A stretch of DNA of 64,000 nucleotides from assembly GCF_016026235.1 (NCBI RefSeq), contig NZ_CP065613.1, one strand, 5' to 3'. The stretch is from Escherichia coli (lineage in GTDB: Bacteria > Pseudomonadota > Gammaproteobacteria > Enterobacterales > Enterobacteriaceae). This document shows positions 40,903 to 49,835 of the stretch, piece after piece; the first letter of the stretch is position 1; every line of letters begins with the position of its first letter. Below the pieces are notes generated by a model, which saw only the letters and a list, made by a program, of their open reading frames with translations, made no database searches and had not been told where the DNA came from. The translations under genes and the position numbers were made by a program.

Positions 40903-41447
40903 TAATTCTGATTCCTCAACTTATTCGCCAGCCTTCAAAGGGGCAATATTGCCGGAGATACTACATTATCTGCCGCGTCGAGTCACAGGAGATCAGCGTG
41001 AATAGCGCCGCCGGACGTGCTCCGACGGCGATAAAGGCATCAATGTGCCTTGATATACAACTCTTTGCTGTAGACTTGATCGGCATAGAGGGCAGCACAA
41101 GGTTGCGCCCATGCCACACCACTCGGCATGGGGGTCCGCTCCGGGCGATTCGAGAAGTTGAGGTTATGCGAGTCCAGGGAAGCCTAAAGCATCAAAGTAG
41201 TCGACTGTAAGTATACGGTTCAGCCCAGTTTAGCTGTGTCTCCACCAGTGCCCCGCGCCTCCTGCCATAAGTGCGGCTTGCTCATGGATACCCCCGAGAC
41301 GGCTTACGGCGCACCGGATAATAAATTTCGCGTATACATGGTATTCCTTACCGGAGAAATTATAAGCCCAACAACAATACGCCTGTGGCATTGTTCGCTC
41401 AAACTTATCGCGAGTGATTTGGCTCACACTCCGGTAAAGATTCCCCA

Positions 41448-41930
41448 TCACGCTAACGGCACATAAACATCCGTTTCCAGTCGCTGCTCTGTCACCCCTT
41501 CGGCAAGATTGGTGTAGTGAAACAGAATCGGTGCTTTACGCATTTTCTCGCCGCTTGCAGGCAGCCAGTGGCGAATAATGCCCCATATCGTGTGTGAAAT
41601 ATCGTCCAGCTCGCCAACGTGGCGGGCCACGGCATAACGTCCACCGGTAAGTTCACCATTGCTCACACCATAACGATTATCGGGAATCGGTTCGCTAACG
41701 CTGCCGCAGATATCAAAGCGAAACGCTTCCGGTGCGGTGGTGGCAGGGTCGTCCCAGGCGACGCCAAAAGTCTGGCTTTGGTTAACAGGAGAAAGCCCCG
41801 TCTCTTTACGCCACATGATAAATTTCGCCACACTGTAGTTGAGCAACTCAGGGCTACAGCGGTGCGGCAACATCGCCACAGGGATTGATGGGAAATCGAT
41901 AATGTTTACATCCAGTGTCAGGTTTGTCAT
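41448..41930 (-). CDS. ygiV: GyrI-like domain transcriptional regulator
   Basis: 160 aa. Confidence 0.8.
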   Translation of the reverse strand: MTNLTLDVNIIDFPSIPVAMLPHRCSPELLNYSVAKFIMWRKETGLSPVNQSQTFGVAWDDPATTAPEAFRFDICGSVSEPIPDNRYGVSNGELTGGRYAVARHVGELDDISHTIWGIIRHWLPASGEKMRKAPILFHYTNLAEGVTEQRLETDVYVPLA

Positions 41931-41982
41931 TTTGCCTCCCTGCGAAATTATTCCCGGGAACGCGTCCCGGGAGCGGTAACAA

Positions 41983-42375
41983 TTACGGATTTACTTTGCG
42001 GATCTGTTTGACGTCAATTTCAACAGAATTCCAGTCTTTATCGACTTCACCCTGAATCTCAACCGTATCTTTCGGCGTCACCGTCACACCGTTCCAGCGT
42101 TTGTGGTCGATATCAACATTGATAGTACCGCTGGCATCTTTAAACACGTAGAGATCGTCAGAGATGCGTTCAACGATATTGCCGCGCAGGGTTACCCAGG
42201 TGTCGTCACGCAGGGATTTTGCGCTTTCTACGGTCGTTACGCTGCCGTTCGGCCCCTGGAATCCTCCGGCCTGACTTTGCGTTGCCGATGGGCCAGAAAA
42301 ACCGCCCTGCTCTGCTGCCATCACCGGTGCGCTGCACAGGGCCATTACTGCGATTACTGCTGCGAATTTTTTCAT
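41983..42375 (-). CDS. ygiW: BOF/YgiW-family periplasmic stress protein
   Basis: 130 aa from MKKFAAVIAV with signal peptide. Confidence 0.8.
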   Translation of the reverse strand: MKKFAAVIAVMALCSAPVMAAEQGGFSGPSATQSQAGGFQGPNGSVTTVESAKSLRDDTWVTLRGNIVERISDDLYVFKDASGTINVDIDHKRWNGVTVTPKDTVEIQGEVDKDWNSVEIDVKQIRKVNP

Positions 42376-42526
42376 GTTTATTACTCCCTTTAATGTCTGT
42401 TTCCGAGCATTTAACAAGATAGTCCTTAACAACTTCTTAAGGGAAAAAAATAAAATTTAGTGCTGTACAGAGCGCGTTACAACACGGTTTACTGGCAGCA
42501 AATACGGTTATCGCAGGGATGAAAAA

Positions 42527-43186
42527 ATGCGAATTTTACTGATAGAAGATGACATGCTGATTGGCGACGGCATCAAAACGGGCCTTAGTAAAATGGGTTT
42601 TAGCGTCGACTGGTTTACACAAGGTCGTCAGGGAAAAGAGGCGCTTTATAGCGCGCCTTATGATGCGGTGATTCTGGATTTAACCTTACCAGGCATGGAT
42701 GGTCGCGATATTTTGCGCGAATGGCGAGAAAAAGGTCAGCGTGAGCCGGTACTGATCCTGACCGCGCGCGATGCGCTGGAGGAACGTGTAGAAGGGCTGC
42801 GTCTGGGAGCTGACGATTATCTGTGTAAACCTTTTGCGTTGATAGAAGTCGCCGCCAGGCTGGAAGCTCTGATGCGCCGAACCAACGGCCAGGCCAGCAA
42901 CGAGCTGCGCCACGGTAACGTCATGCTCGACCCCGGCAAACGTATCGCCACGCTGGCTGGCGAACCCTTAACACTGAAACCAAAAGAATTTGCCCTGCTG
43001 GAATTACTGATGCGTAACGCTGGTCGGGTACTGCCGCGCAAACTGATTGAAGAGAAACTGTATACCTGGGACGAAGAGGTCACCAGTAATGCCGTTGAAG
43101 TGCATGTGCATCATCTGCGACGCAAACTCGGTAGTGATTTTATTCGTACCGTGCATGGTATTGGCTACACATTAGGTGAGAAATGA
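42527..43186 (+). CDS. qseB: two-component response regulator (OmpR family)
   Basis: 219 aa. Confidence 0.9.
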
Positions 43187-44532
43187 AATTTACCCAACGT
43201 CTTAGTCTGCGCGTCAGGCTGACGCTAATCTTTTTAATTCTGGCCTCGGTGACCTGGCTGCTTTCCAGCTTTGTCGCCTGGAAACAAACAACGGATAACG
43301 TCGATGAATTGTTCGACACCCAACTGATGCTGTTTGCCAAGCGGTTAAGTACGCTCGATCTCAACGAAATCAACGCGGCGGATCGCATGGCACAGACGCC
43401 AAATAAATTAAAACACGGTCATGTTGATGACGATGCGCTGACCTTTGCCATCTTTACCCACGACGGCAGAATGGTCCTTAACGATGGCGATAACGGAGAA
43501 GATATTCCTTATAGCTATCAACGGGAAGGTTTTGCTGACGGGCAACTGGTGGGCGATAAAGATCAATGGCGTTTTGTCTGGATGACCTCACCTGATGGCA
43601 AATATCGCATCGTTGTTGGTCAGGAATGGGAATACCGTGAAGACATGGCGCTGGCGATTGTTGCCGGGCAATTGATCCCGTGGCTGGTCGCACTGCCGAT
43701 TATGTTAATCATCATGATGGTACTATTGGGTCGTGAACTCGCTCCGCTGAACAAACTGGCGCTGGCGCTGCGTATGCGTGACCCTGACTCGGAAAAACCA
43801 CTAAACGCGACTGGCGTACCCAGCGAAGTGCGTCCGTTGGTTGAGTCGCTAAATCAACTGTTCGCCCGCACACATGCGATGATGGTTCGTGAACGACGCT
43901 TTACCTCCGACGCAGCTCACGAACTACGTAGCCCGTTAACGGCGCTGAAAGTGCAAACCGAAGTTGCGCAGCTTTCTGACGATGATCCGCAAGCGCGGAA
44001 AAAAGCGCTGCTTCAATTACATTACGGGATCGATCGCGCTACTCGTCTGGTTGATCAACTGCTCACTCTATCGCGGCTGGACTCACTGGATAACCTTCAG
44101 GACGTCGCGGAGATCCCGCTTGAAGATCTCCTGCAATCGTCGGTGATGGATATTTACCACACGGCGCAGCAGGCGAAAATTGACGTGCGACTGACACTCA
44201 ATGCCCACGGCATCAAACGCACCGGACAACCGCTATTGCTAAGTTTGTTGGTGCGAAATTTGCTGGATAACGCCGTGCGCTACAGTCCACAGGGCAGCGT
44301 GGTAGACGTCACGCTGAATGCTGATAACTTCATCGTGAGGGATAACGGCCCCGGTGTGACACCAGAGGCACTGGCGCGAATTGGCGAACGCTTCTATCGC
44401 CCACCCGGACAAACCGCTACCGGCAGCGGGCTTGGGCTATCGATTGTCCAGCGAATCGCCAAATTGCATGGCATGAATGTTGAATTTGGGAATGCGGAAC
44501 AAGGTGGATTTGAGGCGAAGGTAAGCTGGTAA
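43183..44532 (+). CDS. qseC: two-component sensor histidine kinase
   Basis: 449 aa; H-box HELRSPL; 4-bp overlap with qseB. Confidence 0.9.
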
Positions 44533-44540
44533 CTTCTCTG

Positions 44541-44573
44541 TCTATGAGAGCCGTTAAAACGACTCTCATAGAT
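44541..44573. terminator. bidirectional stem-loop between qseC and ygiZ
   Basis: ctatgagag / ctctcatag inverted repeat followed by attttact. Confidence 0.5.
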
Positions 44574-44577
44574 TTTA

Positions 44578-44910
44578 CTAATAGCAAAATATAAACCGTC
44601 CCCAAAAAAGCCACCAACCACAAACCAGACAAATACCGAGCGAGAATACATATACCCAAAACTCGAACATTTCCCGCATAAAGAGTTTTCTTAAGATAAG
44701 AATAATAAGTGGCGTAAGAAGAAAAAATGCTGCAATCATTGCTTGCAATATACGATCTTCGCCTGAAACGGAAGGTATACTGCAAATATTGCCTCCCGAG
44801 TCAAGCATCCAGTCATACTTATTGAAAGCAAAAAAAGCATCTATTAACCAATAAGTAAGCATTATGTATAATAATGCTTCAAATATTGATAGTAGTTGTT
44901 TTTTTAACAT
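44578..44910 (-). CDS. ygiZ: small three-TM inner-membrane protein; candidate immunity protein for the upstream effector
   Basis: 110 aa, AT-rich, 6 bp downstream of the effector-like gene on the same strand. Confidence 0.7.
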   Translation of the reverse strand: MLKKQLLSIFEALLYIMLTYWLIDAFFAFNKYDWMLDSGGNICSIPSVSGEDRILQAMIAAFFLLTPLIILILRKLFMREMFEFWVYVFSLGICLVCGWWLFWGRFIFCY

Positions 44911-44916
44911 GTCTGA

Positions 44917-45627
44917 TTACTCATTAATCAATTTTTTGATATGTTCTCTAATCTCTAACAACCTCATACCATAAGAGATGAATTTATAATCATCTGTATC
45001 ACGCGCAGGCAAATTATTAATTAAATAAATAAAAAACCCCAAATCTCGTTCAACACCACGATTATATCTAATACCAGCCATAATATACTGCTCATTCGTC
45101 ATATACAGTGTTGCCGAAGAGGGATAATCAAAAAGGGCAAGATCTCTTAAATGAGTAGCAGCAATTTGAAACGTAAAATCATCTTCCATTAGGCATGTCG
45201 CTAACTCTAACTGATTTCTGGTAGTTAATTCTGAAGGGTCAAGACCTAGAGTAATCGCTGCGGTTCGTATTTGTATACCCATTGAGCCAAATGATGTTTT
45301 ATTTTCAGGCATATCTAACAATCCAATCATTCTTTTTGTTTCATATATCTGAAACTTATAATTTTCAGGCATACCTCCTGACTCAATCCAGGCCACACCG
45401 CCCAGTAACTCTGGACGAATCCCAGCGGCATATGCATGTTTAATTATTTTGTCCCTATTATATTGTACATATGCATCTTTATAAGCATTTAAATAATATA
45501 CTCCCGAACGGCGACGCGAATCATTTTTTCCTAACTTCCAGAGTAAAACGTCCATTTCATCCCATTTACGGAACTTAGTTTGTGGAATTGTACAATAGCT
45601 ATTTTTTATAGTGAGATCGCTTTTCAT
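44917..45627 (-). CDS. candidate T6SS cargo effector with lysozyme-like / lytic-transglycosylase-like motifs
   Basis: ORF 44917-45654; AT-rich; motifs AWIESGG, SMGIQIRTAA and AGIRYNRG resemble the ES / GLMQ / AYNAG motifs of SLT domains (weak, by eye). Confidence 0.45.
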   Translation of the reverse strand: MKSDLTIKNSYCTIPQTKFRKWDEMDVLLWKLGKNDSRRRSGVYYLNAYKDAYVQYNRDKIIKHAYAAGIRPELLGGVAWIESGGMPENYKFQIYETKRMIGLLDMPENKTSFGSMGIQIRTAAITLGLDPSELTTRNQLELATCLMEDDFTFQIAATHLRDLALFDYPSSATLYMTNEQYIMAGIRYNRGVERDLGFFIYLINNLPARDTDDYKFISYGMRLLEIREHIKKLINE

Positions 45628-45629
45628 AT

Positions 45630-46109
45630 TTAAAAAACCCTTTCTTCCCAACAACTATATGATTCCGTACTCGCGATATGGTGCTTCCATGTTATATTTT
45701 TATAATTAAGAACAATAACCTCTTCCGGTTGATTACCCGCATGTGTAATTGAGTGTGGATAACAAGTCAGAATATTCGATAAATGTGCCCCTTGCAATTC
45801 AATTGTGTAAAACCTTTCAATACAACCGCCAGAATTAATTCTATAAAAATTAAATATAGCTGATAACTCTTCATTTTCAGAAAGAGCAGCATTTAATAAA
45901 GGGGAGGATTTATCTATTGGCTTGTAAAATTTTATGGGGTGATGCACTACATTATATTCTCGACTTAAAGAATGGTCGAACTGCAAAACAAAAATTTCAT
46001 CCACATGATTTATTTGATATTTATTACCAATAGATGCATACGAACCACAGCCCTCAGAGATCAAACCTTGTGTTTTCCCTTTAATTGATAAGTATATGAT
46101 ATTTGACAT
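45630..46109 (-). CDS. hcp: Hcp-family type VI secretion tube protein (orphan)
   Basis: 159 aa; alignable along its length to enterobacterial Hcp1, including the C-terminal NYKNITWKH...SYSCWEE block. Confidence 0.8.
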   Translation of the reverse strand: MSNIIYLSIKGKTQGLISEGCGSYASIGNKYQINHVDEIFVLQFDHSLSREYNVVHHPIKFYKPIDKSSPLLNAALSENEELSAIFNFYRINSGGCIERFYTIELQGAHLSNILTCYPHSITHAGNQPEEVIVLNYKNITWKHHIASTESYSCWEERVF

Positions 46110-46358
46110 ATATATTCTCCATGATTATTTTTTCCGAAAAGCTCCTGTATCATTTGCATAATACATCTCTCCTGTGGGAACTTATGGGAAGTTGATTTCA
46201 GTATTGTCATTTTCAGAAAATATTTATCCTGCATCGGTGAGTCAGAGCAAGATCAGACTTTTGCTAAATTCGCAAAAGACTTTGCACATTTTGCTAATTT
46301 CACCGTACCGCTCTGTGACGTACTATAGTCGGCAAACGTCTCACCTTGAGGTTAAAAA

Positions 46359-46940
46359 ATGAGCAACATCCTGATTATCAACGGCGCGAAAAAATTCGCC
46401 CACTCCAATGGTCAACTGAACGACACCCTGACCGAAGTCGCGGATGGCACACTGCGCGACCTCGGGCATGATGTCCGCATCGTTCGCGCCGACAGCGACT
46501 ACGATGTCAAAGCGGAAGTACAAAACTTTCTCTGGGCTGATGTGGTGATCTGGCAGATGCCAGGCTGGTGGATGGGCGCGCCGTGGACAGTGAAAAAATA
46601 TATTGATGATGTATTCACCGAAGGTCATGGAACGCTGTATGCCAGCGATGGCCGTACCCGCAAAGATCCGTCAAAAAAATACGGTTCCGGCGGCCTGGTA
46701 CAGGGCAAAAAATATATGCTTTCTCTGACCTGGAACGCACCAATGGAAGCCTTCACCGAAAAAGATCAATTCTTCCACGGCGTTGGCGTCGACGGTGTGT
46801 ATCTGCCGTTCCATAAAGCAAACCAATTCCTTGGCATGGAACCGCTGCCGACATTTATCGCTAATGACGTGATAAAAATGCCTGATGTTCCCCGCTATAC
46901 TGAAGAATATCGCAAGCATCTTGTGGAAATTTTTGGTTAA
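46359..46940 (+). CDS. mdaB: NADPH:quinone oxidoreductase
   Basis: 193 aa. Confidence 0.9.
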   Translation: MSNILIINGAKKFAHSNGQLNDTLTEVADGTLRDLGHDVRIVRADSDYDVKAEVQNFLWADVVIWQMPGWWMGAPWTVKKYIDDVFTEGHGTLYASDGRTRKDPSKKYGSGGLVQGKKYMLSLTWNAPMEAFTEKDQFFHGVGVDGVYLPFHKANQFLGMEPLPTFIANDVIKMPDVPRYTEEYRKHLVEIFG

Positions 46941-46970
46941 CTAGAGCTCAGGCTTTAGAAGGAGTTAACC

Positions 46971-47285
46971 ATGCTTACCGTAATCGCAGAAATCCGTACT
47001 CGTCCTGGTCAACATCACCGTCAGGCGGTATTGGATCAGTTTGCTAAAATCGTTCCAACCGTACTGAAAGAAGAAGGTTGCCACGGCTATGCGCCAATGG
47101 TGGATTGCGCTGCTGGCGTGAGTTTCCAGTCTATGGCACCGGATTCTATCGTGATGATTGAGCAGTGGGAAAGCATCGCGCATCTTGAAGCGCATCTGCA
47201 AACCCCGCACATGAAGGCGTATAGCGAAGCCGTAAAAGGTGACGTGCTGGAGATGAATATTCGTATTCTGCAGCCAGGGATTTAA
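46971..47285 (+). CDS. ygiN: quinol monooxygenase
   Basis: 104 aa. Confidence 0.85.
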   Translation: MLTVIAEIRTRPGQHHRQAVLDQFAKIVPTVLKEEGCHGYAPMVDCAAGVSFQSMAPDSIVMIEQWESIAHLEAHLQTPHMKAYSEAVKGDVLEMNIRILQPGI

Positions 47286-47332
47286 ACCTGCCTTGTTTGC
47301 CCGGCCATCCTGACCGGGCAATGTTCTTTCCT

Positions 47333-49228
<1,896 letters not shown>

Positions 49229-49253
49229 TTAAGTTAGCAATTCGAGTTGATCG

Positions 49254-49835
49254 TCAGAGATGGTGCAGACCAAGAAAATCGACGATCGGGTTGAAATAAT
49301 CTTCGAAGCCCGTGAATGCGTGGTTGCCGCCTTCTATGACAGTCTGGCGGCAGGAAGCGTAGTACGCCACCGCCTGGCGGTAATCCAGCACTTCATCTCC
49401 CGTCTGTTGCAGCAGCCAGATCAAATCCGGCGCTTCCAGCGGGTCAATCTGCATGACTTTGAGATCGTAAATATGGCGTGACTCTAGCACATATTGCTGC
49501 CCGGTGTAGGGGTTCTCGTTCTGACCGAGATAGTCCGTCAGCAGTTCAAACGGGCGCACCGCCGGGTTTACCACCACTGCGGGCAGCATAAAACATTGTG
49601 ACAACCAGGTGGCGTAATATCCCCCCAGTGACGAACCGACAATACCCAGCGAATCGCCGCCATGTTCCAGGACAATGGATTCCAGCAGCTCTGCCGCGTC
49701 GGAAGGATACGGCGGCAACTGCGGAATGATCATCTCAACGTCAGGGTGATGTTCCGCCAGCCAGTTTTTTAACAAGCTCGCTTTTGCAGAGCGCGGCGAG
49801 CTGTTGAAACCGTGTAAATAAAGAAGCGTAGACAT
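49254..49835 (-). CDS. yqiA: esterase
   Basis: 193 aa. Confidence 0.85.

Follow-up and report, generated by a model that had tools for sequence, protein, structure and literature searches.

We analyzed a 64,000-nucleotide stretch of Escherichia coli DNA (NCBI RefSeq assembly GCF_016026235.1, contig NZ_CP065613.1; the whole of it is referred to here as the window), and found that three minus-strand genes between qseC and mdaB, designated hcp-X-ygiZ, are likely to constitute a type VI secretion system (T6SS) accessory operon, which encodes an antibacterial effector carried by Hcp together with its immunity protein. The original prediction for this segment, made from the letters and their open reading frames, had described a module of two genes, hcp and X. 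Both genes stood; the third one, ygiZ, which is a K-12 gene and the probable source of immunity, had been overlooked, and so had the absence or disruption of T6SS in many of the genomes that carry the module. The three genes are the following:

46109..45630, minus strand: orphan hcp (tssD), 159 amino acids (aa), with matches to TIGR03344 and PF05638
45627..44917, minus strand: gene X, 236 aa, 27.4 kDa, predicted GH23 lysozyme-like (Tse3/SLT-like) effector
44910..44578, minus strand: ygiZ, 110 aa, DUF2645, predicted immunity gene for a three-helix inner-membrane protein

The distance from the hcp stop codon (TAA) to the X ATG is 2 nucleotides, and that from the X stop codon to the ygiZ start is 6 nucleotides.

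The product of the first gene, placed in the Hcp family by the original prediction, matches TIGR03344 at E = 7.6e-59 (198.3 bits, compared to a cut-off of 58.9), with residues 1-157 aligned to profile positions 1-167, and PF05638 at 5.6e-19; thus, it passes the curated profiles on which that assignment had been made to depend. Among the cluster-encoded Hcp proteins of E. coli, its nearest relative is the 159-160-aa Hcp that ends the T6SS-2 core operon at aspV. With Sakai ECs_0216 it shares 48% identity and with the B2-type T6SS-2 Hcp 49%, in both cases gap-free over 159 aa; with the core-operon Hcp of the T6SS-2 of strain RM8352, it shares 45%, with at most one gap. The values are 27% for the vgrG-linked Hcp of the T6SS-2 cluster and 32%, over a partial alignment, for the T6SS-1 Hcp of CFT073. 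A GGAG element is located 8 nucleotides 5' of the hcp ATG. No other T6SS genes had been noticed nearby, and this was borne out by a tblastn search with 30 T6SS-1 and T6SS-2 proteins, which in the 64-kb window matched this hcp alone. On these sequence relationships, the orphan Hcp is predicted to be both the carrier or chaperone of X and a tube subunit. Hcp and X are encoded by separate reading frames with no in-frame toxin fusion, so the gene does not belong to the toxin-fused Hcp-ET type. Variants of hcp were also seen: in one metagenomic sequence (P0002, a single member), an in-frame deletion joins Hcp residues 1-100 to X from residue 12, with the loss of a third of Hcp, and IS1 is inserted in the orphan hcp of at least two complete genomes, those of strain KL53 and strain 1449.

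Gene X begins at the ATG at 45627, which is the start chosen by the Prokaryotic Genome Annotation Pipeline and the one at which all homologues begin; its product is of 236 aa, and the 245-aa form that had been considered as well, from the TTG at 45654, overlaps hcp and was not retained. The ES, G-x-Q and YN-x-G motifs that had been read in this protein are present and conserved (E82-S83 in WIESGG, G117-I-Q119 and Y188-N189-R-G191). A word-indexed search yielded 34 close relatives, from Enterobacterales only, and in the alignment of 25 close homologues the invariant residues are E82 of WIESGG, T111-S112-x-G114, Q119 and R187-Y-N-R-G191. As a single sequence and as a shallow profile, X gave nothing meaningful among PDB sequences. 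A profile search of 1.84 billion cluster representatives detected 374 relatives at E ≤ 0.001, spanning Enterobacterales, Pseudomonas, actinobacteria and cyanobacteria. In every longer relative the X domain is C-terminal; the N-terminal partners in 66 long relatives include eCIS-core (12 cases; eCIS, extracellular contractile injection system), OmpA (5), PAAR (3) and PG_binding_1 (2), as well as RHS, WXG100, Ntox3 and Mu-F (one each). The Pfam SLT profile (PF01464) was found in one of these 66 proteins at E ≤ 0.001 and, weakly, in nine at E ≤ 0.1. Relatives in AlphaFold DB are named either 'uncharacterized' or 'Transglycosylase SLT domain-containing'.

The structure of X was predicted from an alignment of 144 sequences, in favor of which a prediction from the 25 close homologues (predicted local distance difference test, pLDDT, 59.4) was set aside. 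The structural neighbors of the model include Slt (score 11.7), MltE (11.4), MltC, MltF, Slt70, goose-type lysozyme (9.7) and phiKZ gp144 (9.1), and Foldseek agrees with these lysozyme-like neighbors. When the 144-sequence profile was compared to PDB sequences, it aligned with Tse3 over 112 profile positions at a marginal E = 0.015, and this alignment sets E82 on the glutamate of the Tse3 AEQ motif, which we take to be the catalytic Glu250; hhalign of the X alignment against E. coli MltD was uninformative. E82 is invariant in the 25 close and the 66 long homologues and is kept in at least 90% of the 144 sequences, the conservation that had been asked of a catalytic glutamate. The SLT-like character suggested for the second protein is thus upheld by a predicted lysozyme/SLT (GH23) fold and by the near-invariant glutamate aligned with that of Tse3. 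Hydropathy indicates no hydrophobic segment in X and, therefore, no signal peptide. On the predicted fold, X is a GH23-type lysozyme-like domain with a single putative catalytic Glu, employed as the working end of polymorphic toxins, and is predicted to cleave the glycan strand of peptidoglycan (MurNAc-GlcNAc). Some members of the family deserve mention in their own right. In a cluster of 86 member sequences (P0004), 20 residues are missing between two MPEN repeats, just past the catalytic ESGG motif. On a metagenome contig (L017:2488-5106), a 651-aa protein combining eCIS-core, OmpA and the X domain adjoins a gene with a faint CIS_tube match and is followed by no DUF2645 gene; the X domain may also be employed by eCISs.

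The succession of Hcp and a cargo effector, which is how the original prediction had read the two genes, recurs in five other genera. That reading is further backed by proteins in which the toxin domain is joined to PAAR, RHS or eCIS-core domains. Triads of Hcp, X and DUF2645 genes were found at unrelated sites on F-like plasmids of Serratia, beside colicin genes; on a Pectobacterium chromosome, between pagP and an EamA gene; on a Rahnella megaplasmid; and in another enterobacterial genome, between an ABC transporter gene and polB. In Citrobacter, a triad occupies the same mdaB/qseC locus as in E. coli. A PAAR-X fusion gene is followed by a DUF2645 gene with overlapping stop and start codons, an X gene with a short N-terminal extension is also followed by a DUF2645 gene, and on Cronobacter plasmids an X-like gene precedes one for a 98-aa three-helix protein. 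DUF2645 or a similar small three-helix protein is encoded directly after X homologues in at least eight independent contexts. The two genes are adjacent and co-oriented, with the 6-nucleotide gap here and overlapping or abutting elsewhere, and this linkage is kept in the Hcp-linked, PAAR-fused and N-extended forms. A toxin domain and a small membrane protein that stay together while the delivery module changes bear the signature of a toxin-immunity pair, and the succession of X and DUF2645 across genera, including the PAAR-X fusion, points to YgiZ as the probable cognate immunity protein of X. Decayed variants occur in Citrobacter, with hcp cut to 112 aa in one locus (L023) and X split into 150 and 90 aa in another (L024). 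On the Serratia plasmid CP074138.1, the triad (L007:15638-16723) is located a few kb from a PF03526 (Microcin-family) gene and a gene for a colicin A-type pore-former; this plasmid, therefore, gathers several bacteriocin-type weapons.

DUF2645 proteins have in common three hydrophobic segments, with basic charge at the N-terminus and in loop 2 and acidic charge in loop 1 (about 26 residues); two cysteines are invariant, namely C43 of loop 1 and the C-terminal C109. From charge and hydropathy under the positive-inside rule, loop 1 and the C-terminus of YgiZ would be periplasmic, and a disulfide would be possible there. Between E. coli and Citrobacter, amino acid identity is 61% for YgiZ, compared to 76% for Hcp and 73% for X, and ygiZ differs by 43 nonsynonymous versus 22 synonymous codons; the faster divergence and the nonsynonymous excess fit a fast-evolving immunity protein. 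In K-12, BglJ-RcsB acts as an activator of the ygiZ promoter, and at other loci these two proteins also counteract H-NS; YgiZ itself is an inner-membrane protein (PMC3950696). T7-driven over-expression of ygiZ in BL21 resulted in better growth under sabinene stress and improved cell morphology (PMC7181518).

A predicted SLT-like fold encoded next to a T6SS gene could also belong to a dedicated lytic transglycosylase with a housekeeping role, one that breaches the producer's own wall so that a T6SS can be assembled there, as MltE does for the Sci-1 system of enteroaggregative E. coli, or in the manner of EtgA and VirB1. However, X has neither a signal peptide nor a lipobox with which to reach its own periplasm, is far from any T6SS core cluster, at the scale of the window, occurs at the C-terminal end of polymorphic toxins of the PAAR, RHS and WXG100 kinds, and is paired with a small membrane protein in the way a toxin is paired with its immunity gene. 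We consider such a housekeeping role exceedingly unlikely.

The population sample comprised 5426 complete E. coli genomes. The hcp-X pair is present in 1261 of them (23%), nearly always full-length, and ygiZ in 4598 (85%); ygiZ stands alone in about 3337 genomes (~61%), including K-12, BL21 and C600, and about 828 genomes, including O157:H7, have neither. The supposition that the pair is missing from K-12 is correct for hcp and X, which K-12-type genomes lack, and incomplete in that the span holds a third gene, ygiZ, which K-12 keeps. The comparison of 1261 hcp-X genomes to 4598 ygiZ genomes suggests that the ygiZ of K-12 is probably an orphan immunity gene. Compared to the window, 325 genomes carry hcp-X alleles that are at least 99% identical, whereas 936 carry alleles of 95-99% identity, among them the blood isolate SF-088, in which all three reading frames are intact. 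The B1-type and B2-type alleles differ at 2-3% of nucleotides, with the three frames intact in both, and the synonymous to nonsynonymous codon changes between them are 8:5 in hcp and 10:5 in X. K-12-type genomes diverge from the cassette at 44888, inside the first ygiZ codons, and an unrelated 160-bp segment replaces hcp-X; this segment, 5' of ygiZ, contains no detectable remnant of hcp or X, so the direction of the K-12 rearrangement is not readable from it. The synteny with Citrobacter suggests that the triad is the older state at the mdaB/qseC locus and that hcp-X was lost repeatedly. A member of a cryptic Escherichia clade (Escherichia sp. E2593) has ygiZ only. The cassette is also present in an O25b:H4 strain, according to an AlphaFold DB match.

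The same distribution bears on another explanation, in which X and YgiZ work together like an endolysin and a holin, as in phage lysis or 'type 10 secretion', and YgiZ, as the holin, gives X access to the wall of the producer. A membrane protein of about 100 aa with three helices, adjoining a lysozyme-like enzyme without a signal peptide, is what such a pair would look like. Yet ygiZ is kept without X in ~61% of E. coli, no X homologue was found in 50,697 phage records, there are no phage genes near the locus, and over-expression of ygiZ in BL21 helped growth under sabinene instead of killing (PMC7181518). In addition, holins typically bear a charged C-terminal tail, which YgiZ lacks, its sequence stopping at the conserved Cys right after helix three, and the PAAR-X and RHS-X fusions point to injection rather than self-lysis. 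The holin-endolysin explanation is thus unlikely, as is the housekeeping one, and we give it a very small chance.

From the gene identities, the predicted fold, residue conservation, gene linkage and population distribution observed here, we infer that X is secreted, binds Hcp, acts as an enzyme and is toxic, and that YgiZ lies in the membrane in a given orientation and protects against X; these inferences would be combined as follows. X, having no signal peptide, would be held in the lumen of the orphan Hcp hexamer, and the hexamer would stack into the tube of a T6SS that accepts it, to judge from the Hcp sequence one of the T6SS-2 type. X would then be fired into the periplasm of a neighboring Gram-negative cell, where its GH23-like domain, with Glu82 as the single catalytic acid, would cut the MurNAc-GlcNAc backbone as a Tse3-like muramidase or as a lytic transglycosylase and cause lysis. 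In the producer and its kin, YgiZ, residing in the inner membrane with the acidic loop 1 and the C-terminus in the periplasm and a possible Cys43-Cys109 disulfide, would neutralize X, perhaps by retaining it at the membrane or through obstruction by the acidic loop. Most E. coli would have lost hcp and X and retained ygiZ as an orphan immunity gene.

It should be noted that a number of observations weigh against this mechanism. X has no match in NCBIfam, PADLOC or Pfam, even at E ≤ 10, so that the Pfam SLT profile is among those that fail to recognize it, and the similarity to Tse3 is marginal. To our knowledge, Tsi1, Tsi3 and Tgi2, the immunity proteins of peptidoglycan-hydrolase effectors, are soluble or lipid-anchored in the periplasm and are not three-helix membrane proteins, while small polytopic immunity proteins mostly partner membrane-targeting toxins. 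The combination of a peptidoglycan-hydrolase fold and polytopic membrane immunity is atypical and may represent a new mode of neutralization or a new site of action. For example, T6SS-delivered X could have a substrate other than the mature sacculus, such as lipid II, nascent uncross-linked strands or another lipid-linked glycan, which it would meet at the outer face of the inner membrane, with YgiZ protecting at the membrane; however, the top structural neighbors of X are all sacculus-acting enzymes, and among its relatives there are fusions with PG_binding_1 and with peptidoglycan-binding domains of the OmpA type, so that we hold this site of action to be improbable. It is likewise doubtful, if worth stating, that DUF2645/YgiZ is a new immunity class of ~100-residue three-helix inner-membrane proteins directed against a lysozyme-fold T6SS toxin, which would imply a toxin that attacks lipid II or nascent strands on the periplasmic side of the inner membrane, and not the mature sacculus. 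If this were true, the ygiZ of K-12 would be a fossil of intraspecies warfare, shielding ~60% of E. coli from the toxin-bearing 23%. The module would not be mechanistically surprising unless the membrane immunity reflects such a new site of action.

Other observations of this kind concern the means of firing the cassette. Co-occurrence with T6SS was calculated by inclusion-exclusion on BLAST genome counts, in which the presence of tssC is no proof of a working system. The counts were as follows:

O157-type T6SS-2 tssC alone: 2264 genomes
hcp-X and O157-type tssC (union): 3432 genomes
T6SS-2 tssC in distant mode, which adds the B2 type (~73% identity): 2846 genomes
hcp-X and T6SS-2 tssC in distant mode (union): 3740 genomes
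three tssC types, i.e., CFT073 T6SS-1 and both T6SS-2 types: 3642 genomes
hcp-X and the three tssC types (union): 3913 genomes

Thus, the O157-type T6SS-2 tssC is present in 93 of the 1261 carriers, compared to 526 expected under independence; either T6SS-2 type is present in about 367, an estimate which holds provided that, in distant mode, the hcp-X part of the query continues to match 1261 genomes exactly; and 271 carriers have none of the three tssC types. At least one tssC is found in 990 carriers (78.5%), versus 63.7% of non-carriers. By these counts, T6SS-1 is therefore the sole system of most carriers, and its own Hcp is only distantly similar to the orphan Hcp. The T6SS-2 of RM8352 has a frameshift in tssK, and an IS3 element interrupts its tssG. 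Finally, the genes are AT-rich relative to the flanks, as had been remarked originally (GC of 0.31-0.39 over 44450-46400 versus 0.49-0.59 in the flanks, the AT-rich stretch being 1.8 kb), and this composition suggests H-NS silencing.

These results are relevant to the possibility that the cassette is a stranded relic, i.e., that its genes are intact but silent or undeliverable in this strain and in most carriers, for want of a compatible T6SS, and that its current function is the immunity conferred by ygiZ or none. Consistent with this, the orphan Hcp is of the T6SS-2 core-operon type, yet a T6SS-2 tssC was counted in only about 367 of the 1261 carriers and none of the three types in 271; the T6SS-2 of RM8352 is disrupted; hcp is interrupted by IS1 in some strains; Citrobacter has a truncated hcp or a split X; and the GC content is as low as 31-39%. 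Conversely, the three frames are intact in B1-type and B2-type alleles, with synonymous changes exceeding nonsynonymous ones in both hcp and X, and tssC is more frequent in carriers than in non-carriers. We regard the relic state as possible, although we are inclined to doubt it; it concerns present-day activity and is compatible with the Hcp-carried effector and its immunity protein as the ancestral function.

Several T6SS loci of individual strains were noted in the course of these comparisons. In Nissle 1917 (NZ_CP022686.1), there is one matching place with the three-tssC query and two once hcp-X is added; judged by these place counts, Nissle 1917 appears to carry the cassette and a T6SS-1 tssC identical to that of CFT073. 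The tssF of CFT073 is annotated as frameshifted. In the aspV T6SS-2 island of RM8352 (L021:6931-8860), the core-operon Hcp gene is followed by a 304-aa pseudogene with an internal stop and a glycine-zipper-like hydrophobic C-terminus, and then by ykfM, which encodes a multi-helix membrane protein; the gene 3' of this Hcp was tested as an X homologue and proved to be unrelated. The arrangement looks like a second Hcp-cargo-immunity module. K-12 keeps ykfM near aspV, and ykfM may therefore be another orphan immunity gene.

With respect to known systems, X is 14% identical in sequence to Tse3 (Tge1) of the Pseudomonas aeruginosa H1-T6SS. Tse3 has ~400 aa in two domains, whereas X, with 236 aa, is devoid of the N-terminal domain of ~220 residues and is aligned from Tse3 residue ~226 on. 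The immunity protein of Tse3 is the periplasmic Tsi3, whereas the partner of X is a three-helix DUF2645 membrane protein; the Tse3/Tsi3 pair is remote from hcp, whereas X adjoins an orphan hcp. X differs from GH23 family-1 lytic transglycosylases and goose-type lysozymes in having no Pfam SLT match, no signal peptide or lipobox, and toxin-type architectures. According to PMC6730261, orphan Hcp modules and Hcp-ET toxins of Enterobacteriaceae resemble the present locus, in that an hcp located away from the core cluster is coupled to an antibacterial toxin, encoded directly after it or as a fusion, with an immunity gene alongside, and orphan immunity genes are known in E. coli. The Hcp-ET toxins of Ma et al. 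2017, as summarized in that paper, are fused to Hcp and none is lysozyme-like there, whereas Hcp and X are separate proteins. The same paper describes VT5 of enterotoxigenic E. coli (Ma et al. 2018), a T6SS effector of E. coli described as lysozyme-like that shares a motif with Tge1; VT5 is linked to vgrG (PMC6730261), and X to hcp. Hcp2B/XmtU (PMC5874247), Hcp-ET1 of Shiga toxin-producing E. coli O22:H8 (bioRxiv 2024.03.05.583533) and hcp3 of PCN033, 1149 bp (PMC4882540), were considered and belong to different loci.

In the literature searched, 'DUF2645' and three RefSeq WP accessions occur in no paper, and no paper was found there that calls the K-12 ygiZ an orphan immunity gene. The type of module (orphan Hcp, cargo effector and immunity gene) and the effector fold (Tse3-like, GH23) are already known; relative to that literature, the effector family, which has no Pfam or NCBIfam model, the pairing with a polytopic DUF2645 immunity protein and the role for the K-12 ygiZ appear to be new. 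The gene ygiZ, known so far in K-12 for an inner-membrane protein activated by BglJ-RcsB and associated with terpene tolerance, thereby gains a predicted role as orphan T6SS immunity gene. X represents an unannotated and widespread putative toxin domain, with 374 representative clusters, for which T6SS (Hcp, PAAR, RHS) and eCIS would serve as carriers, and probably also the type VII secretion system (WXG100). The cassette occurs in 23% of complete E. coli genomes, including clinical and, apparently, probiotic lineages, and its activity could bear on strain competition in the gut.

The surroundings of the cassette are the following:

43183-44532, plus strand: qseC, convergent with the cassette
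44541..44572, no strand assigned: inverted repeat with a 10-bp stem, TCTATGAGAG...CTCTCATAGA, from sequence reading and a reverse-strand self-match
46110..46358, minus strand: intergenic region between hcp and mdaB, shared divergently, the presumed site of the hcp-X-ygiZ operon promoter
46359-46940, plus strand: mdaB, divergent from the cassette

The inverted repeat separates the stop codons of the convergent genes qseC and ygiZ and probably terminates transcription in both directions; lacking a T run, it was passed over by a consensus terminator scan, which yielded no more than the shuffled background. Upstream of hcp, positions 46110-46181 are specific to the cassette, the sequence from 46182 onward is common to K-12-type genomes, and that from 46255 onward is shared with O157:H7 as well. 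In this region, a consensus promoter scan gave weak sigma-70-like matches, no more than in shuffled sequence. The cassette of the O121 strain RM8352 (NZ_CP028110.1) is identical to that of the window, and RefSeq labels its genes 'Hcp family type VI secretion system effector', 'hypothetical protein' and 'ygiZ: DUF2645 family protein'. The two sequences are 100% identical over 44400-46400 and differ by 45 mismatches over 8 kb (41400-49400), all of them outside the cassette; an identical cassette between differing flanks suggests a recent exchange of the cassette, or a sweep. In the RM8352 assembly, qseC is on the minus strand at 3.12 Mb, and plsX-fab is at 1.25 Mb in the K-12 orientation; the cassette region thus appears to be inverted in this assembly relative to K-12.

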